Below, in pieces: positions 3,686 through 27,134 of a stretch of DNA of 32,000 nucleotides. Origin of the DNA: Corynebacterium glutamicum ATCC 13032 (GTDB taxonomy: Bacteria > Actinomycetota > Actinomycetes > Mycobacteriales > Mycobacteriaceae); the NCBI RefSeq assembly GCF_000011325.1, contig NC_003450.3:750001-782000 (forward strand), read 5' to 3'. Positions within the stretch are counted from its first letter, which is position 1; each line of letters opens with the position of its first letter. The position numbers and the translations under genes are program-made. The notes beneath the pieces were generated by a model. It did no database searches and was not told where the DNA came from. It was given only the letters and a program-made list of their open reading frames with translations.

Positions 3686-3693
3686 AGTGATCC

Positions 3694-7395: not shown

Positions 7396-7626
7396 GGAAT
7401 GAGGCCTTTGAACGGAAGAATCGGATCAAATAATTAAGTTTCTCGTTACTGTAGCGACTCTGGTGGACACGAGATATGCGAATGGGAACAATTGTGTGAC
7501 ATATCGCTTAGAAATTCTTCATTGCGCCAAGACAGGCGGGCGCATCCATCGCATCCAGGTTCGATTGCTTTTCGACGTTTACCTCCGTCAGGTTGCACAT
7601 CCTAATTAGTAGTAACCGAAATTTGC

Positions 7627-8280: not shown

Positions 8281-8327
8281 AACTCCAAGCCTAAATAAAA
8301 GCTAGAGATTGTGCTTAAAGGGGAGTC

Positions 8328-8350
8328 CGGTGGTCAAAGTTTGACCACCG
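8328..8350 (-). terminator. Perfect 11-bp inverted repeat (cggtggtcaaa-g-tttgaccaccg) just downstream of the GmrSD-like gene. Probable intrinsic terminator or insulator ahead of the TIGR03089-like gene.
   Basis: Read directly from the sequence. It lies 11 nt after the stop at 8361. No U-tract follows on the minus strand, so the terminator function is uncertain. Confidence 0.4.
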
Positions 8351-8360
8351 ACTACGGCTA

Positions 8361-10796: not shown

Positions 10797-10902
10797 TGGA
10801 TATTCACCCTTAGAATTGAGAAGAATTTTCTTTAAAAATACAGTGTATGCGCAGAGGCCGACACCGTTCGGAAATACTTTCGAACTTTAGTTACTTGGTG
10901 CT

Positions 10903-13203
10903 CTAAACCCGCGGCAGCAACTCCGAAGGCTCAGTATGCGTGGTGAGAACAAGGGCATCACGTGCACGAGAAGCTGCAACGTAGAGCAAGGAGCGTTCGC
11001 GCTGTTGGGCGTCGTTACGCTCGGCCTCGCCTAAACCTTGCATGGTGTATTGCAAAGGAATGAGGTCACGGCCCATTCCGATCAAGATGACATGGGTAAA
11101 CTCCATGCCTTTAGCTCCGTGCATTGTCATTACACTGACAGTTTCGTGGGCTGCAAGTTCGGCATTTTGCGTCTTGACGGCATCGATGCCCTGCTCAGAG
11201 AGCGCATTAACCACGCGGTTGATCAAAGGACGGGTGCGTGCCAAAATGCCGATGCGTACATCGGTGGTCCTGTCCTGCCACACCTTGATGAGCTCAGCGA
11301 TTGCTTCGAACTCGTCGGTCTCAGATTCAAATTGGTAGAGGTGTGGCTTGGGGCCCTTACGCGCTGAGCGATAGTGCTCAATTGTGTCCGTTTCGCCTTC
11401 GGCGTCGGTCCATTCACCGGTGAGCATGCCAAGTGCGTAACTGAGGTTTTCGGCGGTGGTGCGGTAGTTAAGGGTGAGTCGCTTAGACGCCCGACCGCGG
11501 GTGGAAATACCAAAACGGCTTAGCACATGATGTTGGCCGTAGATGCGCTGGTGTGAATCCTCAGCCAAGAAGATGTCATTGGGACCTTCGGCTACCGCAG
11601 CCCTGAGTAAGAGCCAATGTCCGGCGTGGAAGTCCTGGGCCTCGTCGATAAGCACATGGTCAAATAGCCGGCCCTGGCCGGCGGCGGCGCGCTGCTCCAG
11701 GATGTTTGCGGCGATGGAGGAAAGCGCTGGCCAGGACATCTTTCCTTCGCGCGCACAGGAAGTCATGAATTGCTGAATAATCGCCCACACTTTTTTGCGT
11801 TGTACGCGGTTTAGTGGGGTACCACGGCCGGGACGAGGTGCACGCAGATAGTCCTTTTCTTGGGTGATTCCGCGGGCTAGGATTACGGTTTCAAACTCTT
11901 GGGCGAGGAATTCAGTATTGCTGATTTCTTCTGATAGATCGCCGGGATCTGCGGAAATGATCGCGTCGATCCAAAATTCTTGTTCGCCGTTGCCGATGAA
12001 TGGGGTGATTCTGCCGGCTGCACGCCCCAAGATAGCAGTGGTTGCTGCCTCACGTTCGGCGGTGTTTGCTAGCGCAACCACCTTATTTGCCAAGGCATCA
12101 ATTCCGCTGATCCACAAGCCAGGACTACCGGGTTTTTCTGCCTCGGGGAAAGTGGGATTAAGCGCGTTCATGGAGGATTTCAACGCATCGGCCAAACCGC
12201 GGGTATAGGTGGTGAGCAGGACTCGAGGCGTCTTATCGTCGGTCTCAAGGTGTCCATCAGAAGTGACCAGGCGGTTGGCACGGTGGACTACCACCACGGT
12301 TTTGCCGGTGCCAGCTCCACCAAAAACGCGACCCGATCCGCTGAAGTTGCGGGTGACTAAGGAGCGCTGGCTGGGGTCGATATACACGCGCCAGCTATCA
12401 AAACCTTCAGTTTCAATAACGCGGCGCAGGTCATTGCTATTTGGGGTATCCAAATAGGCAAAGTCCATTTGCGCTGCTGGGGTTTTAAGCCCAGCAATGA
12501 GCCTGGTATCTTCGCTGCGGGTATCCGGCTCTGTGGAAGGTGCGGGGATAGCGAGCGATTCGCGGATATCTTCAATGCTCAAACCGGCGACAAGGCCGAT
12601 AAGTGCGTCTTTTTCCCACGTCGGGCTGCTAGGAAGCGCTGCTGCGATGTCATCCTCTGAGGCAAGTTCCAACACAATACGGGTGGCAGCCGGGTCAATG
12701 CCGAGCTCGGCTTCCAGGACTTCTGGGGTGTGCCCTGCATGTGCGAGCGCCTCACCAGGGCTGGGCAGCTCCACTGGGGTGGGTACTTCGACGGCGTCCC
12801 GGAGTTGCTCCTCCGCCCGCTTTGCGGCCTCTTCCGCTTTGCGACGAGATTCCTGATCGTCTTTTTGCGCAGGAACGGTAGTTTCCTCGATGAGTCGAGT
12901 AATGCCGTTAACAGAGTTGACTTCAAGGCGGATTTTTCCTGCCTTGGTGATGGCATCATCATGGGGATAAACACCAACCACTACAAAGTGATGATCAAAT
13001 TCGTCGTGAAGCTCAAAAAGCACTGCGCGGAATTGATCATTGACCCGACCTGTGCGGACGCGGGAGTCGATGCTGTTTTTGATGGGCTCAATATGAAGCC
13101 CCGGGGAAGCTGGATTGGTGGCTAGTTTATTGAGGAAATCGAGGGTGAGTTTTTTGAGGCTGCCGTCGATATCTAGTGCGCCGTGCACGCTATAAGAAAC
13201 CAT
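10903..13203 (-). CDS. UvrD/Rep-like SF1 helicase (766 aa) with a ~100-aa N-terminal RelE/ParE-toxin-like domain and an acidic/proline-rich linker.
   Basis: Walker A RVFGGAGTGKT (~12298-12330), motif II VLIDEAQDF (~11630-11656), and C-terminal MTMHGAKGMEF and LLYVAASRARDALVL (UvrD_C-type). N-terminal residues ~35-85 read HIEPIK..RVRTGRVNDQFRAVLFEL..HHFVVVGVYPHDDA, which matches the RelE/ParE pattern (R-x-G-D-Y-R-hydrophobic run, then a hydrophobic strand, then H/R-x-x-A/Y). It starts 30 nt after the stop of the 2100-aa gene. Confidence 0.8.
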   Translation of the reverse strand: MVSYSVHGALDIDGSLKKLTLDFLNKLATNPASPGLHIEPIKNSIDSRVRTGRVNDQFRAVLFELHDEFDHHFVVVGVYPHDDAITKAGKIRLEVNSVNGITRLIEETTVPAQKDDQESRRKAEEAAKRAEEQLRDAVEVPTPVELPSPGEALAHAGHTPEVLEAELGIDPAATRIVLELASEDDIAAALPSSPTWEKDALIGLVAGLSIEDIRESLAIPAPSTEPDTRSEDTRLIAGLKTPAAQMDFAYLDTPNSNDLRRVIETEGFDSWRVYIDPSQRSLVTRNFSGSGRVFGGAGTGKTVVVVHRANRLVTSDGHLETDDKTPRVLLTTYTRGLADALKSSMNALNPTFPEAEKPGSPGLWISGIDALANKVVALANTAEREAATTAILGRAAGRITPFIGNGEQEFWIDAIISADPGDLSEEISNTEFLAQEFETVILARGITQEKDYLRAPRPGRGTPLNRVQRKKVWAIIQQFMTSCAREGKMSWPALSSIAANILEQRAAAGQGRLFDHVLIDEAQDFHAGHWLLLRAAVAEGPNDIFLAEDSHQRIYGQHHVLSRFGISTRGRASKRLTLNYRTTAENLSYALGMLTGEWTDAEGETDTIEHYRSARKGPKPHLYQFESETDEFEAIAELIKVWQDRTTDVRIGILARTRPLINRVVNALSEQGIDAVKTQNAELAAHETVSVMTMHGAKGMEFTHVILIGMGRDLIPLQYTMQGLGEAERNDAQQRERSLLYVAASRARDALVLTTHTEPSELLPRV

Positions 13204-13233
13204 GATTTTTATCTTTCATAAACTTTGGGTGTA

Positions 13234-16200
13234 CTAGGGACGAAGGGCAGCGGGAATATCGGAGGTCTCGAGGTCATTTGCAAAAAGCAGCGTCCAACCT
13301 TCAGCTTTGAGATCATCCTCCAAAGGCTCATCGGGATCAGATTCATAGAGCAAAGCGATCTTGACACTCGGCCACGTAGCAATCGTAGGAATACTCGAGA
13401 GCTCATCACCGGTGGTCTCTGGAACCAGGGCATGTTCCTTAGCCAAGATCTGCAAAGCGCCTTCGGCTTCTTCATCTTCATCGGCGGTAAAGCCATCCAA
13501 GATGGGAGCCCACAATTCAGGAACTTCAACAGCAAGCGGAGCTGCTGGAGCAGGCACAATATCAATTTTATGCGGTGAACCATTAGTGCTTACGTCTACG
13601 GATTCCGGTGCCAGCCACATGAGGTTGGCCAAATTGAGGAAGGCAGTCCAGGTATCCACTTCCAGCTCTTCTGGAGTGGTGGGAGCAAGCCACAATTGGC
13701 GGGCGCGCAGTTCCCGATTAACCATGGTGGCCCGCAAGGAAATCTTATTGCGGAAGGTACCAACAATTCCGTCGCCATTTTTTTGTGGATTATGCCCAAG
13801 CATGTGAGCAGCAGCGATATGAGCAAACTCCTTCCACGAGGATGCCGCGGGATTATCTAAAAATGCCAAGAGTTGATCCATAGGCGTTGCTGCCAGGAGT
13901 GCAGTTGATTGTGGATCAAGAATCAAATTTGCTTTGCTGAGCTGCCTGCCGATGGGGCTAAACCATGCTGGTTCCTCACCTTGTGCAGCGGGATTACTAA
14001 AGCGGTCGAGGTCTAAGCTAGTGATATTCCACGGCAAAATATTGTCTGGATCGAGCGCTAGTTTCATCCGTTTCTGAATATCGCCATCAAGACGGTAGTT
14101 AGCTGAAGAGATATGGAACGCAGCGCCATCGGTAAAAACAGCCACGGTGGGATAGTTGCCGTTGAGCGGTTCAAACCAGAAATCAGGGCGTGTATATCCA
14201 CGATCAACTTGTTCGCTCATCCGCCAGCGCACACCGGAGCTCATCTCAATATCCACATAAGAGTTTGAGCCGTTGACGCGGTCCACAAGTTTGGCATGGC
14301 GATTTTTTAAGGCGCGTCGCAGCATCACGCGGAAACGCAGTTCCAACTGAGAGCCAAGAGTGTTCTCTGGGCGCTTTTCCAAGAAAGTCCAGTCCGGTAC
14401 TGCAGAAAGGTCAGTGATTTCTTCGGGGCGCGAGCTATTGAGCAAAATTGCGCGCAAGGCTTTTTCTGCAGCTGCGCGGGAAGTCTGGAGGAGCGTGGCA
14501 GTGCGGGTATAAGGCAACAAACATTCTGGGCAGGCCAGCCTTTCATCATACTGGCATTGGCACCTAGACACCCGCTCCCAAGCTCGGGAAATAAGTTCAC
14601 GAACCTTTGTAGGATCGGCAAATTGGTTAAGATAACCCGTGCCTCCTGGAACCTGATCGTGCAGCAAAAGGGCATCAAGTGCACCATCGCCAGAAGTACG
14701 GGGGACCTGCACACTGGTGACATCCAGGTGGTCAGGATCGCCACCCAACACCTCACGAAATCCTAATTTGATAGCAGCAATGAGGCTGGTTACCACCATA
14801 GAATCGGCTTCACTGCCAAAATATTCGGGCAGCAGCATGAGCACGCCTTGGGTTTTAAGAGTACGACCCAAAGCGAAAGATACGGTATCTTCTTTTTGCT
14901 CATAACGGTGTGGGCACCAGGGTCGGTGATCCCAGCGTGAGTTAGCTCCTGCCTCGGAATCTAAATGTCCACAGTGGCGGCACACATTAAATAGTGGGCT
15001 GGTGACTTCAAAGCCACCGAGCCGACGCTTTTGGCCATTGCCAATTCCTAAGTTCAGCCAGCGTAATTCCACCTTGGGCAGATGCTCAATGCCAAAACCA
15101 TCATTCAAATACCAGGATTTTCCATGGCCATCTGGTGGAACGACAAAGCTGACGTGCTGGTTAAAGCGGGTGCTAAAGCGATCTTCACGGTCATCGCTAA
15201 TGGCAGCGCGAGTTTTCTCCACTGCGGAGGAAACCTTACGCATTTGCACTACCTCTAGGATTTGTCCCTTATCGGCAAAGGCGGGGGAGCCACAGGTAGG
15301 ACACGATCCCGGTGTAGAGACACCCGGCTGGAGGATTTCGGAGTGCGAGCACACGGGGCACAACCGCCATTGCTCAATGGCAGAGCCATGTTCACCAATC
15401 TCAATGGAATCAACTTTGGCAGCAATTCCTTGGGCATAAAAGGTCGCACCGGGAGCGAGCTCAAAAAGCGCTGCAGAGATCCCACGCGAGTAGGCATGAT
15501 TCTTGGTATCAAATTCCACTTCCTGGGGGTTGAACGAAGTAACCGCCACATTAAGTTCTACGGAATCATCAACCAGGGTGAAGTTGGGCAGGAGACCATA
15601 ACGCTCCAAAGCAGCGATCCAGAATTCACCAAGTAGATCACGGATTTGAAGTTTGACGGCTTTAAGGGAAGCTGCGGTTTTACGTTTTTCTTCCTTTAGC
15701 TCTTCATCATGTGCATCATTGCGCGCATCTAGTTTGTCAAAGATTTTTTCGAGTTCTCCCCGCCGCGCGGTAAGGCTGCGGCGTTCTTCCATCCACTCTT
15801 TTTGGGAGGTTTCCAGCAGCGCGAGGAGGGAGTCTGTGCTATTTCCAGATGCCCAAGTGCGCAGTTCGAAAATATTATCAATGCTGATTTGCATGTTGAG
15901 GGTGCGTACAAATTCCTCCAGCAAAGGATCTAGGCCTGCGTGAATCTGCGCTTTGAGTAATGCAACCAAAGGTGTTTTTCCGGCGGCATTATCAAAAACA
16001 TCAATTGCTGTTTCGAGTTTTGGCAGTTCGGCGCGAGTATCTAAGCAGTCGATCACATATGCCAAGAATTGGCGGTGCAAGATTTCACTGGCGGAAAGAT
16101 ACGCAACTGGTGGGGTAATAGCTCCCTTGATCATGGAGAGCGGTTGGTTAAGACGAGGCAATGTGACACCGCGGCCACGCACCACGGCGAGTACCAACGA

Positions 16201-19200
16201 GTTTCCGCTGAGGCGCCCGGCACGACCAACACGCTGTACATAACTGGCCACTGATGTTGGCAAAGACGCAAGCATCACGGTGGAGAGATCGCCGATGTCA
16301 ATACCCATTTCCAGCGTTGGCGTAGCTACCAACACATTGGGCGCATCGGGGGATTGTTTGGCCGAGCCTTCTCCACCTCTAAAGGATTGTTCGAGTGCGA
16401 GGCGGTCTTTTTTCTTGAGCATGCTGGTGTGCTCGCGGGCAATGACAGTGCGCGGTTCAATTGCGGAATAAAGCCTGCGGTAGTAGTTGTCTTCTACTTC
16501 CTCGGTATGGAGAACGCCCCCACAACTAGGGCTAAAACACGGAGCGCCATCAAGAAGTTCACGCACATGATCAGTTACACCAGTTTGGGCATGGCACACG
16601 CTGCATTCCAGAACTTCGGGATGGTCTTCGCTAAAAATACGGATGCGTTCGGCCTCGAGGCAGTAGATTTTTCCGCCGCTGTCGGTAGATATTGAGGAGA
16701 GAATGCTGCGGTTGCTTAAAGCGTCGAAAAGCTTTGTGATGGCGGTGGCGGCATCGTGGGTGCTGATGCCAAGCACCTGCGAGGTCCAGGACGCATAACG
16801 TCCGCGCGGGCTACCAAGCGGGGTGGTGCCGGTGCTGGAACGCAGGGATCCGGAAAGTGCGGAACCTACACGTGGGAATTCAGGTGCACCACCGCGGACA
16901 AAACCGGGAATGCCCTCAGCGCGGGCTTGGCGGCGGTTAAGCATATAGGGGTTGCCATCGGTGCGCAGGTAGGCGCCAAACCACTCATGGTTGATGCCCC
17001 CGCGGGCGCGCAAAAGTTCCAGGGCACCTTGCACCCAGCGCAGTCGCAGGTTCTCATCCTCAATATCTAAGGTGGGAACTTCGATGGCATAAAGTGCTTC
17101 GGCAGCCGCGGACAATGCAACACCTTTGGGCAAATCCACAAAAGCACTCAAAGCGCCGGTCAGCGCAAGGGAACGGGGTAGATCAGCGCGTTGTCCAAAC
17201 TCGAGGGCGAGATCAAAACTTAAACGTTTATGCACATTGCGGGAGGCCTCACGGCGCTCAGCCTTGCTGGCATCGGGGTGCCAATAAGGTTTGTAAATAT
17301 CAAGATCGGTCAGGTCAGGGGGTAGGAGCTCATAACGGGTGCGCCCAGAGGTGGCGTTATCCATCAGCGCCCGGGAGATTGATGGCAAGGTGACTTCATT
17401 ATCACCCACTGCGCGCCGGGTATAGGTACGAAGGGCAAAAGCGCGGGAACGTGCTTGGACGTACCCGGCGCGGTGCGCGGCATCTTGCACGGAATCGGCA
17501 AAGACCAGCGTCTTTTTCTCAGCGCTATCCAAATCGGCCATACCAAAAAGATTGGAGAGTGAGACAGAGAGCAGGGTAGAGATTCCCGATCCGATATAAC
17601 GGATGGAATCAACATCACCACAGGAAGGGCAGGTCTGTTTGGCGGAGAGATCGTCTGCCTCAGGGCCAAAGTGGGTGAGCACTGCGATAGAAGAACCTGA
17701 TTGTTCTTCTTCTGGGCTGGGTTGGCGCGTGCTGAGTTCATTGCTGGCGCTATGGAACCACAGCACTGCTGAGGTGCCATCAACTCCTCGCGGCCCAGCA
17801 ACGCTGCGCCCCTGCTCAATGGCTGCGCGCTGCTCAGAGGTGGCGTCGAGAAGCGCTCTTTGTTTATGGGGTTGTTCAAAGGAGTTGAGGCGAATTTTTT
17901 GTTCTTCCAACACCGGGATATTGGTGCCTTGTTCCAGGCTGACCATCCAGCCGGAACGGCCACAACTGCGGCAATAACACGCCGGCAACCATTGTTGGGT
18001 ATTGGCATCTTCTGCCGGGCCATCATCGGACCAGCGAAACATGGATTGTTCATCCCCAACCCCCAGGGCGCGGTCAATGCGGGAGACCTCGCGCACCCAA
18101 AGATGCGTTTCGACGCCAGGTAGGCGCTTGGCACCCCAGGCGGCAACTTTGCCGTATTCCGCGCGCACAAATGCCATGGCAGCCAGTGCATGGCTGATAA
18201 ATTCCGCAGCTTTAACCTCACCTAAGATGCGGGCGGTAGCCCCCAATACCAGCTCCGGAAGGGCAGTGACCTCATCTTGATCACGCCTGCTAAGCGGGGT
18301 GGAATCAGCAGCATGCTGCAAAATCGCAGCAGTTAAATCATGAGCCGCATAAGCACTGATCGCTGCGTGCAGATCAGCCTCACACAGCCACACTTTCTCA
18401 CAAAAAACGCGGAAGCAGAGCTGTGCATAATCGTCCTCATGTTGAGCTGTGGCGATGGTATCTAAAACCACCTCAATATCTTCCACAGTGGGTAGCTCAC
18501 GGGGCTCGCTAACTGCTGGGGCACCAAAATTCTGGGCAATTTCTGCGCGCCATTGATCCAGCTCCAGGCGAGTTTCCCCGACGATGGCATCAGCTGGAAA
18601 ACGCTCACCAAAAATGGTGTAAGCAAAATCCAACATGGGGGAGCCGGAATCACCAGAACCCAAGGTTGCTGAGGTAGCCACTGGCGTAATAATGCCCAAT
18701 GGCCGGTGCATGGCACTATCATCCAAAAAATTAGCAGGCTGCTGGGATTTCAGCATGAGCCCCAAACGCCGCAACAACAACGCCACATCTGTACCTTGAG
18801 CACCGTCATAAGTGTGGAACTCATCAAGTACTAAATACTGCAAAGAGGTGGCGGATTTTTGCCACATTTCGCGGTCGACGCTGCGCAGCAAGAGCTGATC
18901 CAACATTTTGTAGTTGGTGAGCAAAATATCTGGGGGACTAACCCGCATGGCTTGGGGATCATTAATAAGCTCCCTTTCGCCCATCTGCGTGCGATTGCCC
19001 TTGGCTTCACCGGTATAAATACCGGCGGTAACACCTTTAAGTGCTGGGTTATTGTGAATGAGCCGCGCCAAACGATCTGCCTGGTCATTGGCCAAGGCGT
19101 TCATGGGATAAAGCAACAGCGCCTTGATGCCTTGTTGGCCACGTTTCCGCAGGCGCAGGGCATGATCCAGAATCGGGTAGAGGAAAGATTCCGTCTTACC

Positions 19201-19536
19201 GGAACCCGTTCCAGTTACCACCAAGGTGGGATCGGGGCGGCGATCTTTACCTCGGTTATCGAGGGAACTCAGCCGCTGAAACGCCGCTTTTTGATGGTGA
19301 TAGGGCACAAAGTTCTCAGGTAACCAACTCAGCACATTTTCCCATTCCTGTGCCTGAGCATAGGGCAAACGTGCACGCACATAAGGCCCGTGGAACATGC
19401 CGGAATCACCGTGGCCCAAGAACCGCTTGAGCTCGGTGGCCACTTGCTTATCCGCAAGGGAAAAACTGGTGGTCAAATATTCGGTGATGCCTTCTTGAAT
19501 GCTGCCAGCCGCATGGACAGGAATGAGTGAGGACAT
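13234..19536 (-). CDS. 2100-aa DEAD/DEAH helicase fused to a DUF1998/MrfA-type zinc domain (DrmA+DrmB-like or DruE-like), with a C-terminal Vsr/DUF559-like endonuclease-fold segment and an unknown tail.
   Basis: Helicase motifs: VVTGTGSGKTESF (~19195-19230), LLYPMNALANDQ, LVLDEFHTYDGAQG, VATSATLG, VFADSVQDAAHRAGY, VATPTLEMGIDIGDL, YVQRVGRAGR (16211-16234). Zinc ribbons CRSCG and CPSCG are inserted in the core. DUF1998-like part (~14509-15369): CPVCSH..CPTCGS, CRHCGH..WCPH, DQVPGGTGYLNQF (14620-14658), CQCQ..CPEC. Endonuclease-like part (~13990-14355): SQLELRF..RPDFWF (14173-14190)..VAVFTDGAAFH..DIQKR. Confidence 0.85.
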   Translation of the reverse strand: MSSLIPVHAAGSIQEGITEYLTTSFSLADKQVATELKRFLGHGDSGMFHGPYVRARLPYAQAQEWENVLSWLPENFVPYHHQKAAFQRLSSLDNRGKDRRPDPTLVVTGTGSGKTESFLYPILDHALRLRKRGQQGIKALLLYPMNALANDQADRLARLIHNNPALKGVTAGIYTGEAKGNRTQMGERELINDPQAMRVSPPDILLTNYKMLDQLLLRSVDREMWQKSATSLQYLVLDEFHTYDGAQGTDVALLLRRLGLMLKSQQPANFLDDSAMHRPLGIITPVATSATLGSGDSGSPMLDFAYTIFGERFPADAIVGETRLELDQWRAEIAQNFGAPAVSEPRELPTVEDIEVVLDTIATAQHEDDYAQLCFRVFCEKVWLCEADLHAAISAYAAHDLTAAILQHAADSTPLSRRDQDEVTALPELVLGATARILGEVKAAEFISHALAAMAFVRAEYGKVAAWGAKRLPGVETHLWVREVSRIDRALGVGDEQSMFRWSDDGPAEDANTQQWLPACYCRSCGRSGWMVSLEQGTNIPVLEEQKIRLNSFEQPHKQRALLDATSEQRAAIEQGRSVAGPRGVDGTSAVLWFHSASNELSTRQPSPEEEQSGSSIAVLTHFGPEADDLSAKQTCPSCGDVDSIRYIGSGISTLLSVSLSNLFGMADLDSAEKKTLVFADSVQDAAHRAGYVQARSRAFALRTYTRRAVGDNEVTLPSISRALMDNATSGRTRYELLPPDLTDLDIYKPYWHPDASKAERREASRNVHKRLSFDLALEFGQRADLPRSLALTGALSAFVDLPKGVALSAAAEALYAIEVPTLDIEDENLRLRWVQGALELLRARGGINHEWFGAYLRTDGNPYMLNRRQARAEGIPGFVRGGAPEFPRVGSALSGSLRSSTGTTPLGSPRGRYASWTSQVLGISTHDAATAITKLFDALSNRSILSSISTDSGGKIYCLEAERIRIFSEDHPEVLECSVCHAQTGVTDHVRELLDGAPCFSPSCGGVLHTEEVEDNYYRRLYSAIEPRTVIAREHTSMLKKKDRLALEQSFRGGEGSAKQSPDAPNVLVATPTLEMGIDIGDLSTVMLASLPTSVASYVQRVGRAGRLSGNSLVLAVVRGRGVTLPRLNQPLSMIKGAITPPVAYLSASEILHRQFLAYVIDCLDTRAELPKLETAIDVFDNAAGKTPLVALLKAQIHAGLDPLLEEFVRTLNMQISIDNIFELRTWASGNSTDSLLALLETSQKEWMEERRSLTARRGELEKIFDKLDARNDAHDEELKEEKRKTAASLKAVKLQIRDLLGEFWIAALERYGLLPNFTLVDDSVELNVAVTSFNPQEVEFDTKNHAYSRGISAALFELAPGATFYAQGIAAKVDSIEIGEHGSAIEQWRLCPVCSHSEILQPGVSTPGSCPTCGSPAFADKGQILEVVQMRKVSSAVEKTRAAISDDREDRFSTRFNQHVSFVVPPDGHGKSWYLNDGFGIEHLPKVELRWLNLGIGNGQKRRLGGFEVTSPLFNVCRHCGHLDSEAGANSRWDHRPWCPHRYEQKEDTVSFALGRTLKTQGVLMLLPEYFGSEADSMVVTSLIAAIKLGFREVLGGDPDHLDVTSVQVPRTSGDGALDALLLHDQVPGGTGYLNQFADPTKVRELISRAWERVSRCQCQYDERLACPECLLPYTRTATLLQTSRAAAEKALRAILLNSSRPEEITDLSAVPDWTFLEKRPENTLGSQLELRFRVMLRRALKNRHAKLVDRVNGSNSYVDIEMSSGVRWRMSEQVDRGYTRPDFWFEPLNGNYPTVAVFTDGAAFHISSANYRLDGDIQKRMKLALDPDNILPWNITSLDLDRFSNPAAQGEEPAWFSPIGRQLSKANLILDPQSTALLAATPMDQLLAFLDNPAASSWKEFAHIAAAHMLGHNPQKNGDGIVGTFRNKISLRATMVNRELRARQLWLAPTTPEELEVDTWTAFLNLANLMWLAPESVDVSTNGSPHKIDIVPAPAAPLAVEVPELWAPILDGFTADEDEEAEGALQILAKEHALVPETTGDELSSIPTIATWPSVKIALLYESDPDEPLEDDLKAEGWTLLFANDLETSDIPAALRP

Positions 19537-19543
19537 AAGCGCT

Positions 19544-22500
19544 CTATGGCTCCTTTAGCTGGTTTTCAAATTTTGCATATGCAGCACGCAGATCAGCTTC
19601 ACGATCCAACACCCGGAAAGGATATTCAAAGGTATAGGACACTTCTGATTGGGGATGCACCCAGGTGCGCTTTTCCACGCTGAGCTCTTGGCCATCTTTA
19701 AGTTTCTGCTGCAGCTTGATGATCTCTTTAGGAACTTTACGGCCATTGGCATCAAAATGATCTTCTTGATCATATCTACGCATCACTGGGAATTGAGTGC
19801 GATAAATCATGCACAGCTCATCAGCACTAATACCCAAAGACAATGCCACCATGGCATCAATATCGTTTTGCGCTGCTCGACGTTGCTCGGCATTGCGCAA
19901 AGGCACCTGAACATCCCACGGCTCACCGGTGATCTCTTCCCACAATGGGGCATAAGCTGAGGTCAGGCAGTTGAGGCGGAGGTATGTGCGGGCGAACTGC
20001 TTTTCCAAGGATGTGAAATTTGGAAGTGGAATCTTGCGAACAATGTCGTTAAATATGTGGCTTGAACCCGAGGACCGAGCAAAATAGTCACTTAGAATTG
20101 CACCAAGCTGTGCTCCAACGAGAATGGTTTTTAAGTTTGAACGTGATGCAGCGCTATTAACTGTGTGCACATGGTTGGCTCCCGGTGGAATTACTGATGG
20201 GTAGACAGTCCTAAATCCCGTGGTGGCAGCCATCTCCCTCCATGCAATTCGGAAAGTGTCTGCAACTGGTACCTGCTTGTCCCCGAAAGTCCAGGTGCCG
20301 TAGTCAGCATCATAAGTGGGCTTTGTTTGGCGATCGGGCTGGTACGCCGTTGCAGGTATGAAGTTTGCAGGAATGGCCTCGAAATCAATTTCAGACCAAT
20401 CTTGATTATGCTTCATTGTCGGATTGGGCTGCTTGATCATTGGTGTAGCAACACCCAGGTGCGGCCCCTGCAAAATGGCATCAGACCAGGAAGCTGGGTA
20501 GCCCCAACCAACGTCAAAGTATCCCTTTTTCTTATCGGTGGTTTCATTCCAGCCACTGGAGAACTGCAGCCCGAGTTCTTTGATACGAGGTGCAGAAGCC
20601 AACTTTTCCAACACTGCTGCTGCTTCCGTGTTGACGGTATAAACCATGCGGGTATCCAAGTATGGCGTTTGTTCATCCTCCAGGATGGACTTCCACACCG
20701 TCAAAGTATCGGCATTGACCAGTTGGATACGGTCCTTGTGTGGGCGACGGTCCCAGTTGCCATTGTCGTCTTTAAGACCAGGGAGATTACCTGAACCGTC
20801 ATGATCAAGTGAATCAAGCACTGTTTGTGGGTGATAAAGCGACGCAGCACTTAAAAAGTTAATAGATTCCTGCGGAGCGCCATAGACATGTACGCCATAT
20901 TTAACCAAGTCGTGGACGTCAAAAAGAATCAACTCATTAATGAACTGCCAGTGGCGGCGCAGACGCTCATATGCTCCCCGACGTAGCGGGGCAGCTTTTT
21001 TCTCAGTGAAGTGGGATTCGGGGTGGATCAGTGAGATCGCACCTGCCGGGGAGGCATTAGACCAAGTCTTTTCCATAAAGCCCCGGTAGAGGTCCGGGCG
21101 TTGATCTTTAAGATGCGGATAGAGAGTAACCGAACCGAGGATCGCAGAAGTAGCCACGGTTTCACCTGCACCACTGACCACATGTTCGAGGCTCTTAGGA
21201 TTGTTGTGAAAATTCTTCTGGCGTTCTTTTTTGGATGCCTGGGTTGGTTTACTCATTACAGCCCACCACGGATCATGTTCAGCAAGCAGATCCTCAAAGT
21301 TCACATCTGGTCGCACCCATGGTGGATTACCAACCTGCAGATCAAATCCACCCTTGGCAAAAACGTGGGCGAAGTCTAGATCCCAGTGGAAGAAGCTCTG
21401 TTGTTTAGCCACTTGGCGGGCAACATTGATCCACGGGTGATTCGCGCTAACACGCTCAAAGCTCAATGCCCCAGAAAAACCAAGATCAGTAGCCTCGGCA
21501 TCATTAATGGCTAGCCAATTGGTATCTGGACCTAAGACAATCTGATTTTCGTTTTTGGACTTCAGAGGGAGATCAATACCCAGAATCTCCGTCAGGGTGG
21601 CTAGCCACTCATCAAGATCTGGAAGGGCTGGACGCTCCGGATGCTCAGCGGTAGCAACAGCATCCAAAGGCCAGAACCACAGCGCACACCAAGCATCCAT
21701 CACCAAGCGTAGACGGTTATATGCACCATCAATATTGCCAAAGAGGTCTTGTTCAATTTGCTCACGTGTGACAACCTCCGAAACCTCAGCTGGCTCTTGA
21801 CCCCAGAGAGTAGTGCTACGTGAGATCTGGGATTCTGCAATGCGAATACGCATCAGCACAAATCGCCATAGTGTTTCCACGCGTAGGGCAAGGTTATTGA
21901 GCTGCTTAATCTGAGTTTTACTCAAAGACGCACGGATGGAAGTACGCCAAGATTTAAGCTCCTTGATTTCAGTAGCCATAAGATCTTTAAGATCTTTGGC
22001 ATCTGCAGTGGCTCCCCAGCCAGTAGAGGGCAAGAGGAAGTGGTGGATGCCGTGGTTGAAGAGGGGTTCTGCTTTGTTTTCATCAATAGCCTGCGCGATA
22101 TCATCAAGCCGATAGCGGGTTGGAGTAGCAGTTAACCAGGCTTTTTTATTAAGCAGACTAGGTGCATACAGCGAACGGGTGGCACCAACGAGGGAGTTAC
22201 CATTACGCAGGTGCAGGCCATACCAAGGTGCGTCCATTTCTGCATTCATGGTGTCTAGCCACAGCGAGATTTCCGCCAACTCCACAGCAGTGCTGTTAAG
22301 GTCCACACCATAAACCTGGTGCAGCGCAATGTGCGCTTTGACCTTTTGGAGTTCCTTGGCACGGTCTTCCGCTGGAATCTGCTGCTCTAGTTCTTCTTGG
22401 CGCAATTCCAAATAAAGCTCTGCTAATTGGCGTACTGCTTCCACAGCGAAGGCGCCGGAACCCATGGCAGGTTCACAGATGGTGAGGCTGAGAACATCAT

Positions 22501-24142
22501 TGGCTGTGGTGATGCGCTTTGATGCCTGGAGTTCTTCAATAGCCTGGGTGACAGTAAAGCTGGTGAGTACTTGTGGGGTGTAGAAGGACGCTGAGCGTTC
22601 GCGGTCACGAGAGGACTGACGGAACACAAATGATCCGCGCGGGTGGCGTTTACGCACCTTGATTACGCCGCCACCAGGGGCTTCTTGATCAACTTCGATA
22701 AAGCTATCGGCAGGGACTTCATCAGCCTTTGAGACCGGGAGCATCCAGGAACCTTTATCGGCTTTGCCATGTGGTGCAACCTCAAAAAGATCTTCCTGGG
22801 CGATAAAGCCGGTATAGGACATCAGACCCTCATAAACTTGGCCAAGCTCGGTAACACCCAAGGTGGCATAGGAGATAAAGCCGCGGTCTTTACCGGATTG
22901 CACCCGGGAGAGCAGGAGGTTTTCCAAGACCTTGTTTAGGGCTTCATTGGAAAGACCAACTCGATCAATAAGTTCTGTGGCTGCAGGGAGGAAGAGATCC
23001 GCTGAAAGGTTGCGGAAGTGCAGGCCTTCTTCTCCAGCCTCGGCATCAAAAGCTACAGCCTTAGCATCTGTTGGGTGGTGGCCTTTATCCACCAGAGTGA
23101 ACAGCAGCTGCAGGGAATCATAAAGGTGGGTGCCCGTGCGAGCATGCTGGGTAACTGGGGGATTAAGAATAAGCTCGCGCAGGCGTGCCAAGCCATAACC
23201 CTCGTCATATTCCGGGGTGCCGGTTGGCAGGATTTCAAGCTCTGGTGAAGCCTCGGCAAAAAGCAGGAACAAAATGCGGTAGAGATAGCGCAAAGATTGC
23301 TTAGCTAGCTCGCCACCGTCGATCTCAGCGGTGGAGAGCTCTTTAGCTTCATAGCGTGTGAGCACGTCATTGCCCAGGATTTCAATGGATTCACGCACCG
23401 CACTGCGTAGCTCGCCAGAAACCTTGACAGCATGTTCGCGGGATTGCTCAATGGTTTCTTCCCACCAGGTGGTGCCATCGGCGGCACGCTCGGTATTTTC
23501 GCGGGCTAGTGCTACGACCGTCTGCTGCATCTCACCCTGGGCTTTGGTGTCATTACGTTCCACCACCAGGGAAATATCAATAGCTAGGTGGCGGCCTAGA
23601 GGCCAGGTTTCACGCTCGGCTAAAACCACCCATTTACCAGCGGTGATAACAACAAAAGCAGGGGGAGTATCACTAAGGAAAATCTGGCCCACCAATTTGG
23701 CTGCGGTGATATCCTGGGGCTTGTCATTGACCGCTACTGGCTCAAGGGGAAGGGATCGGAAGTTCTCTTCAAAGCTTTCAGCGGGAGTCGCTGCAAGAAA
23801 TTCCACACTGCCGGCATTTCCCACCCAAGAGGAATAGGATATTGTGTCGGAGCCGCGCTGCGCGTGGCGCGCGCTGGGGACACCATACCCCAGTGCAGAG
23901 GCCACTAAACTGGCGGCGGTGGTGGCGTCGTCAAGCTCAGAAAGAGCATGCTGCAACTGCAGGCGGTTGCTGGAAAAACGAGTTAAAGGGCCACTCTGCT
24001 GGGTTGCGTCCTCGGTGGTTTTCCATTCTTTAATGCGCTCGCGCACCCGCTTGGAAAATGAGGCACCTTTGGCATCGTCATTGGTGAGGTAGTGGTCACT
24101 GATCCACTCTTCAACATTTAGGATCGAATCAAATGCACTCAT
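19544..24142 (-). CDS. 1532-aa gamma-class N6-adenine DNA methyltransferase (Eco57I/PglX/DrmMI-like) with no recognisable nuclease domain.
   Basis: FYTPQVL, motif I ICEPAMGSGAF (22448-22480), YGVDLNSTAVELAEISLWL, NGNSLVG, motif IV LQVGNPPW (~21317-21340). The start lies 4 nt after the SNF2 stop and the stop lies 7 nt before the helicase start, with an AAGGAG SD in its 3' end. Confidence 0.85.
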   Translation of the reverse strand: MSAFDSILNVEEWISDHYLTNDDAKGASFSKRVRERIKEWKTTEDATQQSGPLTRFSSNRLQLQHALSELDDATTAASLVASALGYGVPSARHAQRGSDTISYSSWVGNAGSVEFLAATPAESFEENFRSLPLEPVAVNDKPQDITAAKLVGQIFLSDTPPAFVVITAGKWVVLAERETWPLGRHLAIDISLVVERNDTKAQGEMQQTVVALARENTERAADGTTWWEETIEQSREHAVKVSGELRSAVRESIEILGNDVLTRYEAKELSTAEIDGGELAKQSLRYLYRILFLLFAEASPELEILPTGTPEYDEGYGLARLRELILNPPVTQHARTGTHLYDSLQLLFTLVDKGHHPTDAKAVAFDAEAGEEGLHFRNLSADLFLPAATELIDRVGLSNEALNKVLENLLLSRVQSGKDRGFISYATLGVTELGQVYEGLMSYTGFIAQEDLFEVAPHGKADKGSWMLPVSKADEVPADSFIEVDQEAPGGGVIKVRKRHPRGSFVFRQSSRDRERSASFYTPQVLTSFTVTQAIEELQASKRITTANDVLSLTICEPAMGSGAFAVEAVRQLAELYLELRQEELEQQIPAEDRAKELQKVKAHIALHQVYGVDLNSTAVELAEISLWLDTMNAEMDAPWYGLHLRNGNSLVGATRSLYAPSLLNKKAWLTATPTRYRLDDIAQAIDENKAEPLFNHGIHHFLLPSTGWGATADAKDLKDLMATEIKELKSWRTSIRASLSKTQIKQLNNLALRVETLWRFVLMRIRIAESQISRSTTLWGQEPAEVSEVVTREQIEQDLFGNIDGAYNRLRLVMDAWCALWFWPLDAVATAEHPERPALPDLDEWLATLTEILGIDLPLKSKNENQIVLGPDTNWLAINDAEATDLGFSGALSFERVSANHPWINVARQVAKQQSFFHWDLDFAHVFAKGGFDLQVGNPPWVRPDVNFEDLLAEHDPWWAVMSKPTQASKKERQKNFHNNPKSLEHVVSGAGETVATSAILGSVTLYPHLKDQRPDLYRGFMEKTWSNASPAGAISLIHPESHFTEKKAAPLRRGAYERLRRHWQFINELILFDVHDLVKYGVHVYGAPQESINFLSAASLYHPQTVLDSLDHDGSGNLPGLKDDNGNWDRRPHKDRIQLVNADTLTVWKSILEDEQTPYLDTRMVYTVNTEAAAVLEKLASAPRIKELGLQFSSGWNETTDKKKGYFDVGWGYPASWSDAILQGPHLGVATPMIKQPNPTMKHNQDWSEIDFEAIPANFIPATAYQPDRQTKPTYDADYGTWTFGDKQVPVADTFRIAWREMAATTGFRTVYPSVIPPGANHVHTVNSAASRSNLKTILVGAQLGAILSDYFARSSGSSHIFNDIVRKIPLPNFTSLEKQFARTYLRLNCLTSAYAPLWEEITGEPWDVQVPLRNAEQRRAAQNDIDAMVALSLGISADELCMIYRTQFPVMRRYDQEDHFDANGRKVPKEIIKLQQKLKDGQELSVEKRTWVHPQSEVSYTFEYPFRVLDREADLRAAYAKFENQLKEP

Positions 24143-24146
24143 TGTG

Positions 24147-27035
24147 TTAAACCTCGGTGTTCAAAGTTGCGGGCTGCGGAAGAATGACGGCCAAAGGCCT
24201 AATAAGTTCACGGTCTGGCTCGAGAGCATTACTCAATTTCTGCTGCTCCTCAATCAATTTTGCAGTTCGCGCGGTACGGGACGTGGACGCTGCGCCACTT
24301 CGTTTGTTATTCCAGGCTTCGGCTCGCTTAGCCCAATGCTCAACGCGAGTTTGAGCCTGAGCGCGGGCGGCGATCATTAATGGACGGATCTCGCCGCGGG
24401 CGGCCTGAACAGCAAGGGAAATAAGCTGCTCAATATCGTCGGGGAGTGCAGCGGTACCTGGGTTAATGGCGGTTTCATCGAGGCCTATGGAATGTAACCA
24501 TTGGATGGGATCGGACAGCACCTCAGTATCAAAGGGGCCAGAAGAAGCCACAAAAGAACGAGACACAATTTGGCCACGCCGATTGCTCAATGTGGACATA
24601 AGCAGCACCGTTGGCTCTGTGACTTTGCCACTAGCCGCCGGAATTTCCGAACGTGGCATGGTTGCCAGCGCGCGGTCAGCTGCCCACGAAGTGACTGGGT
24701 GCAGGGGGCCTAGATAGTGGGCACTTGGCCAGGTACTGCCATCTTCACCAGTGCGCGCAGCGTTGAGGCGTTCTTGGCCACGCATCAGTGTGGAAGCTAG
24801 TAGGAGATCTTCCTTAACTTTCCGGGCAGCCACATAATCCTGCGGGAGGAAATCTAGACGACGGCGCAGATCATCGGTGGGGGTGAGCTCCACGATGTCA
24901 TTATCGTGTTTTTTGAACCCCACGCCACCGCGGTTGATGGAATCCTCCGGTACGTTATTGAAACCTTCGAGGAGGCAGTCATAGAGGAAAGAGCTTTCCT
25001 GTGCATACAACCGGCGTTGTGCATGCTGCGTGCTATTGGAAGCTGCATCTGGTGCTGTTTGGTTTTCTGTTTCTGCTTCTGCTTCTGTTTCTGCCTTGGC
25101 ATCGGCTTGGGCGATTTGGGCTAGCAACCAATCAATATCATCTAGGCCTGCTGGGTTTTCTAGGACTTCCGCTGGATCAGCCACTGCATCATTAAAGTTT
25201 TGGGCACCGCGCAGGACTTCGCGGATGGTTTCTTCTTCCAAACGCTCAGAGTGCTTGCCCATGAGAGATGCGGCATCACCGAGCAAAGAGTGCGCCTCAT
25301 GTTCGCGCTCCATGAGCCTCTCCAGCACATGGACTTCACCTACTTTGGAATCCTCGGCGGGATCGAGCAAGAAGGTAACGATGGAAGGGTTGTGGGTTTG
25401 ACCATAACGATCAATACGGCCATTGCGCTGCTGAATGCGGATCAGTGACCACGGGATGTCATAGTGCACCAAGTTGTGGCAGAGAGTATGCAGGTTCACA
25501 CCTTCTGAGGCAACATCGCCGGTGATCATGATGCGGATGGGAGAATCCGTCTTTTTAAACTCATCCACCAGGCGCATTTGCTCCTGGTCGGGGAGACCGC
25601 CGTGCATAACAGCAATAGAGTTGGGTGGCATCTTGAGATCACGGATGAGGTTTTCCTGCAGCCAGTGCAAAGTAGCGACACGCTCAGAGAAAATCACCAC
25701 GCGGGTATCGGAGTTCTTCTTCACTCCGATGTCACCGAGGTAGCTCAGTAGAGATTGGTACTTCTGTGAGGTCTGCGGGGTGATCGCAGAATTAAGTTGT
25801 GAAAGGGTTTCTAGGGCGCGTTTTTCTTCTGGTGCAGAGGCCTTTTTGAGGCGATTGGACACTGTTTCGCCCAAGGCTGCAGGGGAGGAGAGAAAAGCCT
25901 TCACCAATGTCCAGGGGAAGAGGCGATCCTTGATCGGATTGCTCGCACCTGGTGAAATCCACACATGGTTGAGTTCTGCAGCAACGCCGTTTTCTTCTTT
26001 TGACGCAGCGACCAGGAAGTTCTGAGGCTCATTGCGTGGAGCCCATTTTTCGCCCACAAAACCTGAAACCTCAGGGCTATTGCGATGGCGACGAATGATC
26101 AGACGCTGTGCAGCTTCGGCATCAATGGTGCCATCAGGCATCACAGCGGTGGGATCAAGCAAACGCAAGATCTCCTTAAAGGATTCTGGATCACCATTGT
26201 GCGGGGTGGCAGAGGCCAAAATAAGAGCCTCGGCAGTAGGCGCAAGTGTGCGGGCTAGCTCATTATTTTGGGTGCCAGCATTGGTTGCATTGTGGATTTC
26301 ATCTATAACCACCGCATCCCAGTGCACCTTTTCTAGTTGCGCGCGGTACTTCGGAGATTTCAAAGTATCCATAGAGACAATCACGCGCGGGAAATAAGTA
26401 AAAGGGTTGCGTGATGCTGGCAATTTTTGGCGCACTTGCTGGATGCCCACGGAATCTAGACGAACGAGCGGGATGGCAAAACGGGTCCACATTTCCTGCT
26501 GGAACTGCTCCATAATGTGGCGCGGGGTGACTACCAAAATGCGCTCACCACGGCCACGGCGGATAAGTTCCGCCAAGATCATGCCCATTTCTAGGGTTTT
26601 GCCAAGTCCCACGGCATCAGCAATAAGCACGCGGGGGCGCAAGTTAGCACTAGAGAGGGTTTTGCGCACGGCTGCTAATTGGTACTCCAGTGGATCGGCG
26701 AGCATTTGATCTGCCACGGAAAGTGACTCTTGATAGAGCGGTACCGGAGTTTTACGCATGGTGGCCTCCAACCACAGGCGGGTGCGACGGTAATTGGAGG
26801 AATCATCAAGACTGACGGTGACCTGGGTAGGGTCAATGACCTTCAAATCTTTATCAAGTGCGGTGAAGAACGTAGCTTCGTGGTCCCGCACATAATCAGA
26901 GAGACCACGAGCTTTAACCCTAAAACCATCTGTGGAGCGAGTAACGTGAGTAACCAGCCAAATTTCATCTCGGACTTCAATGGTGACACCCGGGGATAGA
27001 GAGTCAGTAGAACTTAGCGCACCTGATTCAGACAT
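24147..27035 (-). CDS. SNF2-family ATPase/helicase (962 aa), DrmD-like.
   Basis: LIADAVGLGKTLEMG (~26590-26630), VVIDEIHNATN (26293-26313), LILASATPHNG, VVIFSERVATL, ITGDVASEGVNLH, QQRNGRIDRYGQ (~25399-25434). First gene of the minus-strand block. Confidence 0.85.
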   Translation of the reverse strand: MSESGALSSTDSLSPGVTIEVRDEIWLVTHVTRSTDGFRVKARGLSDYVRDHEATFFTALDKDLKVIDPTQVTVSLDDSSNYRRTRLWLEATMRKTPVPLYQESLSVADQMLADPLEYQLAAVRKTLSSANLRPRVLIADAVGLGKTLEMGMILAELIRRGRGERILVVTPRHIMEQFQQEMWTRFAIPLVRLDSVGIQQVRQKLPASRNPFTYFPRVIVSMDTLKSPKYRAQLEKVHWDAVVIDEIHNATNAGTQNNELARTLAPTAEALILASATPHNGDPESFKEILRLLDPTAVMPDGTIDAEAAQRLIIRRHRNSPEVSGFVGEKWAPRNEPQNFLVAASKEENGVAAELNHVWISPGASNPIKDRLFPWTLVKAFLSSPAALGETVSNRLKKASAPEEKRALETLSQLNSAITPQTSQKYQSLLSYLGDIGVKKNSDTRVVIFSERVATLHWLQENLIRDLKMPPNSIAVMHGGLPDQEQMRLVDEFKKTDSPIRIMITGDVASEGVNLHTLCHNLVHYDIPWSLIRIQQRNGRIDRYGQTHNPSIVTFLLDPAEDSKVGEVHVLERLMEREHEAHSLLGDAASLMGKHSERLEEETIREVLRGAQNFNDAVADPAEVLENPAGLDDIDWLLAQIAQADAKAETEAEAETENQTAPDAASNSTQHAQRRLYAQESSFLYDCLLEGFNNVPEDSINRGGVGFKKHDNDIVELTPTDDLRRRLDFLPQDYVAARKVKEDLLLASTLMRGQERLNAARTGEDGSTWPSAHYLGPLHPVTSWAADRALATMPRSEIPAASGKVTEPTVLLMSTLSNRRGQIVSRSFVASSGPFDTEVLSDPIQWLHSIGLDETAINPGTAALPDDIEQLISLAVQAARGEIRPLMIAARAQAQTRVEHWAKRAEAWNNKRSGAASTSRTARTAKLIEEQQKLSNALEPDRELIRPLAVILPQPATLNTEV
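25065..25094. repeat. Five tandem hexamers (ttctgt/ttctgc) inside the SNF2 gene, encoding an (A/T)E-repeat acidic linker (AETEAEAETE).
   Basis: Read directly from the sequence. The repeat unit is in frame, being a multiple of 3. Confidence 0.7.
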
Positions 27036-27048: not shown

Positions 27049-27104
27049 ACGCGTCTTAACAAAGTATTTGCGAATACGGTCCACTTTGTGGCAAAAACGC
27101 CACA

Positions 27105-27134
27105 CCCCGCAGCCCACGGTGGTGGGCTGCGGGG
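27105..27134 (-). terminator. Rho-independent terminator of the LCP gene, marking the right border of the defence island.
   Basis: A perfect 12-13-bp GC-rich stem (ccccgcagccca(c) / (g)tgggctgcgggg) with a 4-6-nt loop, 21 nt downstream of the LCP stop (27155). On the minus strand it is followed by tgtggcGTTTTTgccac, which is a T-run plus a second small hairpin. Confidence 0.65.

Follow-up and report, generated by a model that had tools for sequence, protein, structure and literature searches.

Given the mixture of defence-related modules encoded in a 32,000-nucleotide (nt) stretch of the Corynebacterium glutamicum ATCC 13032 chromosome (NC_003450.3, positions 750,001 to 782,000; this whole stretch is called the window below, and coordinates follow its numbering), we asked whether its operon of an SNF2 ATPase, an adenine methyltransferase and a very large helicase represents a variant of the DISARM system, as an earlier sequence-only reading had proposed, or whether it belongs to a defence system of another kind. 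Our analysis indicates that positions 10903-27035 very probably encode armA-armB-armC-armD, an anti-phage system of ARMADA type II. The architecture had been taken for undescribed and experimentally untouched, yet ARMADA type II has been published, and mutants of it have been assayed in Escherichia coli (PMC12458937). The C. glutamicum copy is an uncharacterised actinobacterial member of this known and tested kind, and not a new kind of system.

A four-gene operon and its likeness to ARMADA type II

ARMADA, the "disARM-related Antiviral Defense Array", was defined by Bell et al. in 2025 (PMC12458937). Type II systems keep a strict gene order, in which a BrxHII/RapA-like SNF2 ATPase (ArmA) and a PglX-like methyltransferase (ArmB) are followed by ArmC, a YprA-like helicase with a fused OB-CON-DUF1998 module and a C-terminal Vsr-type nuclease; type II ArmC is further marked by a helical, BrxA-like insert that follows RecA1 and by a beta-barrel/MarR-like zinc module in RecA2 (PMC12458937). 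Deletions and point mutants of the system have been assayed in E. coli NCTC 12900, ATCC 8739 and EDL933 (PMC12458937; mBio 2026, PMC13463889). As the comparison set we used armABCD of E. coli EDL933, whose ArmC (WP_000937974.1) serves as the type II reference.

The order and orientation of the four genes are the same in C. glutamicum as in E. coli, and all products are near-full-length homologues of their E. coli counterparts. In BLASTP alignments, ArmA shares 34% identity with EDL933 ArmA over 806 columns (E=1e-139) and ArmB shares 32% over 1387 columns (E=0). The two ArmC proteins align collinearly over 2009 columns with 28% identity (573 bits, E=2e-173), and the ArmD proteins align over 771 columns with 29% identity, nearly end to end on both sides and including the N-terminus (E=3e-77). 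The catalytic positions tell the same story at the level of single residues, as every one of the eight residues that were mutated in E. coli ArmA to ArmD is kept in C. glutamicum: the Walker A lysine K146 and Walker B aspartate D245 of ArmA correspond to E. coli K136 and D236, ArmB G561 and N939 to G605 and N971, ArmC K114 and D238 to K110 and D234, and ArmD K301 and D520 to K266 and D454. Six of the E. coli mutants (ArmA K136 and D236, ArmC K110 and D234, ArmD K266, ArmB N971) abolished defence, and the remaining two (ArmD D454N and ArmB G605A) lost it in part (PMC12458937). The two systems differ in protein length, the C. glutamicum ArmB being 112 amino acids (aa) shorter and its ArmD 62 aa longer than the E. 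coli proteins.

An open reading frame (ORF) scan reproduced exactly the three ORFs of the sequence-only reading, with their coordinates and with the gaps of 4 nt between armA and armB (24143-24146, TGTG) and 7 nt between armB and armC (19537-19543). The coupling of these three genes thus stands, but the operon as first drawn left out a fourth gene, armD (10903-13203), whose counterpart is essential for protection in E. coli; it runs in the same direction as armABC and begins 30 nt after armC. This UvrD-like gene had been placed at the drmC position as a stand-in for that gene, whereas it is better understood as the integral component ArmD, with an N-terminus of predicted RelE fold. We treat the four genes as one unit because just 4, 7 and 30 nt separate them and because the four-gene synteny is kept across genera. 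All four ORFs are uninterrupted, with every catalytic residue in place.

In terms of existing gene names, the operon most likely corresponds to cg0845-cg0842 (armA cg0845, armB cg0844, armC cg0843), a mapping that follows from source names and from papers on these genes. Transcriptome papers report that the expression of cg0842, cg0843, cg0844 and cg0845 is regulated in C. glutamicum. All four Arm proteins have exact counterparts among the entries of strains ATCC 13032 and MB001, and NCgl0705, a "probable ATP-dependent helicase" that probably corresponds to one of this window's helicase genes, has been deleted with no reduction of biomass or histidine titre.

Domains of the Arm proteins and competing assignments

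Seen through PADLOC and NCBIfam, with DrmD, IIG/DrmMI, DruE and GajB as its best library matches, the locus appears to be pieced together from DISARM, Druantia, BREX and Gabija, and it reaches no curated DISARM threshold. The sequence-only reading had foreseen that rule-based finders could mislabel the locus, and PADLOC 2023 did break it up, labelling ArmA as DrmD, ArmB as a type IIG enzyme, ArmC as DruE and ArmD as GajB. Two of these likenesses are common modules and not membership: from BREX, ArmB is PglX-like and ArmA is BrxHII-like (201 bits), but BrxA, BrxB, BrxC, PglZ and BrxL are absent here, and from Gabija, the helicase core of ArmD is GajB-like (100 bits), but the GajA nuclease is absent.

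The likeness to DISARM goes further. ArmA consists of the Pfam domains SNF2-rel_dom and Helicase_C, as expected from the SNF2 ATPase recognised earlier, and DrmD is its best match both in PADLOC 2023 (306 bits, ahead of BrxHII) and in NCBIfam (DISARM_DrmD, 337 bits). ArmB matches DrmMI with 177 bits. Class 1 DISARM (drmD-drmMI-drmA-drmB-drmC) shares with the locus an SNF2 ATPase, a large adenine methyltransferase and a YprA helicase with a DUF1998 module, so that content and order resemble drmD-drmMI-drmA-drmB, and Bell et al. themselves term ARMADA "DISARM-related" (PMC12458937). One might thus regard the operon as a variant class 1 DISARM with a fused drmA/B and a lost drmC. However, the 337 bits of ArmA fall far under the curated DrmD cut-off of 610, and ArmC scores 275 bits on DruE models against 65 on the DrmA models of PADLOC and 24 on NCBIfam DISARM_DrmAL, where the cut-off is 999. 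The helicase and DUF1998 parts lie on one 2100-aa ORF instead of on separate DrmA and DrmB proteins, PLD/DrmC is missing with a putative Vsr-like domain fused to the helicase in its place, and there is an extra RelE-UvrD gene. Furthermore, Bell et al. assign DISARM helicases to another major YprA branch than those of ARMADA and Druantia (PMC12458937), the pairwise scores of ArmC point to the ARMADA/Druantia branch and away from the DISARM/Dpd one, and each protein of the operon finds a much stronger full-length counterpart in ARMADA II. A class 1 DISARM is therefore very improbable; what survives of that proposal is the relatedness and the similar content and order, and what does not are the separate DrmA and DrmB, DrmC, and a DrmD score at the curated level.

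In agreement with the reported absence of DrmC, Pfam finds no PLD domain in any of eight proteins scanned in the window. The accompanying statement that the HxKxxxxD motif occurs nowhere needs a small correction, as there is a single such string in any of the proteins, HLKDQRPD at residue 1010 of ArmB. We rejected it as a PLD motif and regard it as a chance match, because E. coli ArmB has VLRGVQTN at this place.

ArmB itself matches the Pfam families Eco57I, MmeI_Mtase and N6_Mtase and carries EPAMG(SG) at residue 557 and NPPW at residue 939, all of which agrees with the adenine methyltransferase lacking a nuclease motif that had been read from these letters. Its top PADLOC 2023 match is PDLC03611, "REase_MTase_IIG", with 3743 bits, the DrmMI model ranking second. 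Together with NCBI/MB001 names such as "type II restriction enzyme, methylase subunit", and with the unimpaired biomass and histidine titre after deletion of NCgl0705, this match could suggest that ArmB is a type IIG restriction-modification enzyme lying among unrelated helicase genes, or that the operon has decayed to a relic that plays no part in defence in this strain. Yet the label is circular: since the match runs end to end, covering 1532 of the 1532 positions in the model and averaging about 2.4 bits for each residue, the model was almost certainly built from this very ArmB (REBASE) sequence. The sequence-only reading had allowed for a type IIG nuclease overlooked in the methyltransferase, and no such domain was found when the N-terminal 500 aa and the C-terminal 551 aa were searched with Pfam at E up to 10, nor did a search of PDB sequences return any relatives of ArmB; a cryptic nuclease is conceivable. 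A bystander role of ArmB is at odds with the short intergenic gaps and the four-gene synteny across genera, while the relic reading is at odds with the intact ORFs and the retained catalytic residues, and dispensability for growth is just what one expects of a defence system. We consider the type IIG or relic reading about as improbable as class 1 DISARM.

In ArmC, Pfam places DEAD at residues 103-263, Helicase_C at 1033-1109 and MZB/DUF1998 at 1587-1673, the last containing PGGTGY at 1630 and CPEC at 1669. CxxC pairs occur at residues 522, 636, 978, 1393, 1412, 1519 and 1669. A helicase fused to DUF1998 in one ORF, as in DruE, had been described before, and the stretch of about 1000 aa then noted between motifs I and VI fits the roughly 770 residues that separate the DEAD and Helicase_C matches, with the Cys pairs at 522, 636 and 978 inside. 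This insert of about 770 aa between the RecA lobes aligns with the insert of E. coli ArmC.

The family that ArmC resembles most after ArmC itself is DruE, which raises the question of whether the locus is a Druantia-type system, built on a DruE helicase with unusual partners. DruE3 and DruE1 are the best PADLOC 2023 matches of ArmC (275 and 250 bits), and its closest solved structures are DruE and MrfA/YprA, the best being 9tu7, a 2108-aa "DEAD/DEAH box helicase" that we take, unchecked, to be DruE. In Druantia type III (druH-druE), DruE is the closest helicase relative of ArmC, both being large YprA-family proteins with zinc modules and a fused DUF1998. DruE heads the PADLOC list because the 2023 library has no ARMADA model and DruE is the nearest family in it. 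Under pairwise comparison, however, ArmC aligns with E. coli DruE in two patches only (121 and 80 bits, best E=8e-31) and with the DruE-type gene of its own window at 157 bits, against the collinear full-length alignment with E. coli ArmC. Moreover, the gene upstream of armC encodes a methyltransferase and not a DruH-type protein, the ArmC C-terminus carries a Vsr-like motif set whereas DruE has PLD-like C-terminal domains, Druantia III has no SNF2, methyltransferase or UvrD partners, and a genuine DruE-type gene lies separately elsewhere in the window. Judged by these scores, ArmC appears nearer to ArmC than to DruE or DrmA. A Druantia-type assignment is, if anything, the least probable of the alternatives, and the DISARM, Druantia and type IIG readings carry only a small probability even when taken together.

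ArmD matches the Pfam families UvrD-helicase and UvrD_C and, in PADLOC 2023, GajB and NERD+UvrD. Low-threshold Pfam scans of its N-terminus and linker gave nothing useful. The AlphaFold2 (AF2) model of residues 1-130, built from 60 homologues, has a pLDDT (predicted local distance difference test) value of 83, and in a Foldseek search of the PDB nearly all of its top 30 matches are toxins of the YoeB, YafQ, HP0892/0894, ParE and HigB type, with a probability of 1.00 at ranks 1-17 and at least 0.94 down to rank 30, E values down to 3.8e-4 and a target TM-score of about 0.66. These matches confirm, at the level of a predicted model, an N-terminal RelE-like domain in ArmD, a feature shared with E. 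coli ARMADA II.

The second feature of interest is the C-terminus of ArmC. No nuclease had been recognised in the operon at first, but the last 400 residues of ArmC carry a conserved Vsr/DUF559-like motif set. Residues 1724-1910 align to residues 1681-1874 of E. coli ArmC (E=2e-9), and across 22 ArmC homologues, among them the E. coli protein, the motifs sxLExxF, PDF, (T/L)DGxxxH and DxxKR are invariant, with E1732, D1785, D1803, H1808, D1819 and R1823 as the conserved residues. The AF2 model of the last 409 residues (1692-2100) has a pLDDT of 91 and comprises three alpha/beta domains. From these sequence comparisons we conclude that ArmC of C. glutamicum possesses a nuclease-like domain, homologous to the one in E. 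coli ArmC, that appears to be catalytically intact. The likeness ends there, in that the EEP and second Vsr domains of E. coli ArmC have no BLAST similarity in the roughly 240 aa that follow the first Vsr-like domain in C. glutamicum.

Several observations weigh against the assignment to ARMADA type II or against parts of it, and several of them concern the fold of this domain. In an hhalign comparison of the domain profile with E. coli Vsr, the active-site motifs are paired (RPDFWF...VFTDGAAFH of ArmC with RPDFVV...IFTHGCFWH of Vsr), but weakly, at E=0.08. Foldseek searches with ArmC 1692-2100 found nothing significant in the PDB (best E=0.1; weak matches to SfsA, TnsA and EcoRV at E of at least 0.14), nor in BFVD, where the best match was an intron endonuclease at E=5.6e-3 and DUF559/Vsr proteins followed at E=0.25-0.5; the three-domain query probably lowered the sensitivity of these searches. 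The Pfam family REase_MTES_1575 is matched weakly by 3 of the 22 members (E about 0.05), and phmmer and hmmsearch runs of the C-terminal region and of the 22-sequence profile against PDB sequences returned no match. The evidence for a Vsr-type fold is thus concordant but weak. As for the remainder of ArmC, a sequence search of the PDB with residues 296-520 found no match for the BrxA-like insert, which Bell et al. regard as a synapomorphy, and the protein was placed by pairwise scores. The identity of the four proteins to their E. coli counterparts is just 28-34%. The E. coli evidence, in turn, reaches only to the need for the four genes and for the ATPase and methyltransferase motifs. Finally, our literature searches yielded no methylome or phage assay of the C. 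glutamicum locus. As to earlier listings of the locus, these searches brought up no defence-system census naming it, and the supplementary tables of Bell et al. (PMC12458937), as far as they were available, contain no "Corynebacterium" or WP_0110138xx entry.

The surrounding island and its Druantia III-like pair

The arm cassette is found again as one unit in further Actinomycetota, where its genomic surroundings are unrelated. The same A-B-C-D order is found in Flaviflexus huanghaiensis, whose ArmC is 53% identical to that of C. glutamicum, in C. uterequi and in a further Corynebacterium genome, each time in a different neighbourhood; in the first two, unrelated genes for metabolism and transport lie on either side of the arm loci. 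The features of the C. glutamicum locus and its surroundings are collected in Table 1.

Table 1. Positions of the arm genes, their principal domains and neighbouring features in the window
Feature	Coordinates	Strand	Description	Basis
armA	24147-27035	-	SNF2/RapA/BrxHII-like ATPase, 962 aa	ORF scan, Pfam, BLASTP
armB	19544-24142	-	PglX/DrmMI-like N6-adenine DNA methyltransferase, 1532 aa	
armB methyltransferase core	21218-22645	-	residues roughly 500-975	
armC	13234-19536	-	DExH helicase of the YprA family, OB-CON-DUF1998 fused, nuclease-like domains at the C-terminus, 2100 aa	
ArmC DUF1998/MZB module	14518-14778	-	zinc-binding, residues 1587-1673	Pfam PF09369, E=4.9e-11
ArmC putative nuclease domain	13957-14376	-	Vsr/DUF559-like, PD-(D/E)xK, residues ~1721-1860	
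armD	10903-13203	-	UvrD-like helicase with predicted RelE-fold N-terminus, 766 aa	
ArmD N-terminal domain	12886-13203	-	predicted RelE/ParE fold, residues 1-106	
Terminator-like hairpin	27099-27113	-	3' of lcpA, upstream operon edge	pattern match only
lcpA	27155-28711		LytR-CpsA-Psr, upstream of armA	Pfam
GmrSD gene	8361-10796	-	type IV restriction, 811 aa	Pfam GmrSD_N and GmrSD_C
TIGR03089-family gene	7627-8280	-		NCBIfam
DruH-position ORF	3694-7395	-	1233 aa, no family match	
DruE-family helicase, cut by window edge	2-3685	-	N-terminal 1228 aa	PADLOC DruE3, 471 bits

Two of the related loci show peculiarities at armB. In GCA_000160795.1, another Corynebacterium genome, an AAA_21 ATPase and RloB pair lies between armA and armB (1171-3108 of that locus). 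Its armB and armC are separated by a reverse-strand copy of the ArmB C-terminus (7776-9674), with 62% identity to residues 903-1531; this partial copy may be a leftover or a specificity module that can be shuffled. The armB of C. uterequi comes out as two ORFs of 828 and 702 aa that overlap (5442-9991 of that locus), and this split points to a frameshift or pseudogene in that strain.

Upstream, the C. glutamicum operon is bordered by lcpA, and a consensus scan of the stretch from the lcpA stop to the armA start found one minus-strand hairpin followed by a T-run. The lcpA and TIGR03089-family genes, about 18.9 kb apart in C. glutamicum, are adjacent in C. pacaense (5577-7814 of that locus), which suggests that armABCD and the GmrSD gene were inserted between conserved cell-envelope genes; the lcpA-TIGR03089 junction looks like an insertion hot spot. 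Neither a tRNA, nor an Rfam family, nor an integrase was detected within the window. The GmrSD gene, encoding a modification-dependent enzyme with about 250 extra C-terminal residues, follows armD on the same strand after 106 nt. Because it is absent from the arm loci of Flaviflexus, C. uterequi and Corynebacterium sp. A21, we regard GmrSD as a separate system of the same island. The G+C content of armABCD (49-56%, window 11000-27000) differs from the 46-49% of the region holding the Druantia-like pair, the TIGR03089-family gene and GmrSD (1-11000), so that the two halves of the island may differ in history. Compared with the E. coli system, which resides on O-island 172 of EDL933, the actinobacterial locus is chromosomal and lies between core cell-wall genes; Zorya, part of the E. 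coli island, is missing, and the GmrSD type IV enzyme stands alongside instead.

What the two islands do share is a Druantia III-type pair near the arm genes. In C. glutamicum it is found 3.5 kb downstream of armD and consists of an ORF of 1233 aa and a helicase gene, cut by the window edge, that starts 8 nt after the stop of this ORF. The helicase (E=4e-51 against E. coli DruE) is a genuine DruE type and the second YprA-family helicase of the window; since its gene runs past the window edge, the ORF list does not show it. Its partner is harder to place. The 1233-aa protein has no Pfam, PADLOC or NCBIfam match, a word-indexed search returned just 2 relatives, and 91 relatives were found among 1.84 billion cluster representatives, the full-length ones being mostly 1100-1250 aa long and occurring, in those hosts that were looked up, in Corynebacterium, Rhodococcus, Nocardia, Gordonia, Tsukamurella and Skermania. 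A DruE-type gene directly follows the homologue, without exception, in the five Corynebacterium genomes and the Rhodococcus ruber genome compared. The protein holds the place of DruH and is similar to it in size, DruH having 1119 aa in E. coli and 1132 aa in M. smegmatis (PMC13316683). At the sequence level, BLASTP detects no similarity to E. coli DruH, hhalign with a 40-member profile gives a non-significant E=0.059, and the PADLOC DruH models match 0 of the 40 members. The 1233-aa protein is a DruH that has diverged very far or, if not, a member of a separate partner family.

The neighbourhood of the two systems is not confined to this genome. ARMADA II adjoins a pair of a DruH-sized protein (about 1130-1230 aa) and DruE in three Mycobacteriales genomes: besides C. 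glutamicum, Corynebacterium sp. A21 has ArmC, ArmD, the partner and DruE in succession with nothing between them (locus 1-15441), and in R. ruber (locus 1-16321) the genes for ArmA and ArmB (50% and 47% identity) run divergently to the partner-DruE pair. Co-location and synergy between ARMADA II and the Druantia III system, on the OI-172 island, are described in the two ARMADA papers for E. coli only (PMC12458937; PMC13463889), and we regard the neighbourhood of ARMADA II and a Druantia III-like pair in Mycobacteriales as a modest new observation. It is tempting to speculate that the pairing is an old, cross-phylum functional partnership and not an E. coli peculiarity, a tentative suggestion that we hold to be somewhat less likely than not.

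A possible mode of action and its significance

How might the four proteins act together? In E. coli, deleting any one of the four arm genes abolishes protection (PMC12458937), and in EDL933 single deletions of armA, armB, armC and armD were built, each of which lost defence; armB could be deleted with the others kept in place (PMC13463889). The protection conferred by ARMADA II in E. coli is broad, and infected cells are intact and metabolically normal (PMC12458937), which argues for a direct, non-abortive defence. Among the arm genes, armB is the most variable between E. coli islands (PMC13463889), as would fit a specificity-determining role.

A scheme towards which we lean slightly has ArmC as the effector, ArmA and ArmB handling a mark on DNA and ArmD as a helper. 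It draws on the 3'-5' translocation of MrfA/YprA along single-stranded DNA (ssDNA), on the recognition of ssDNA overhangs by DISARM DrmAB and on PglX and BrxHII of BREX. In this scheme, the YprA-type motor of ArmC would load on the phage genome as it invades or replicates, at exposed ssDNA or at DNA ends, its OB-CON-DUF1998 canopy would clamp the strand, and its C-terminal Vsr-like domain would cut. ArmA and ArmB would act jointly, in the manner of BrxHII/PglX in BREX and DrmD/DrmMI in DISARM, as readers or writers of an adenine-methylation mark by which attack on unmarked DNA is licensed. They would be required partners of the effector and not merely an antidote for self-protection. ArmD, with its UvrD-like helicase and RelE-fold domain, may supply a second helicase activity that aids the unwinding or processing of the target.

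Taken together, the assignment has consequences for annotation and for the biology of C. glutamicum. The set of DrmD, type IIG enzyme, DruE and GajB into which older rule sets divide the locus is corrected to one ARMADA II system, and REBASE-style labels name ArmB a restriction enzyme with no nuclease evidence behind them. ATCC 13032 and its prophage-free derivative MB001 are widely used strains that lend themselves to genetic work and for which phages are known, and a native ARMADA II together with GmrSD and the Druantia III-like pair could affect their transformation and phage sensitivity. The locus also offers an actinobacterial model for questions that concern ARMADA II as a whole, namely the mark handled by ArmB, the target cut by ArmC and the role of the RelE-like domain of ArmD. 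If the two neighbouring systems cooperate in the way seen in E. coli, C. glutamicum would be a tractable native host in which to study how two YprA-helicase systems share DNA intermediates.

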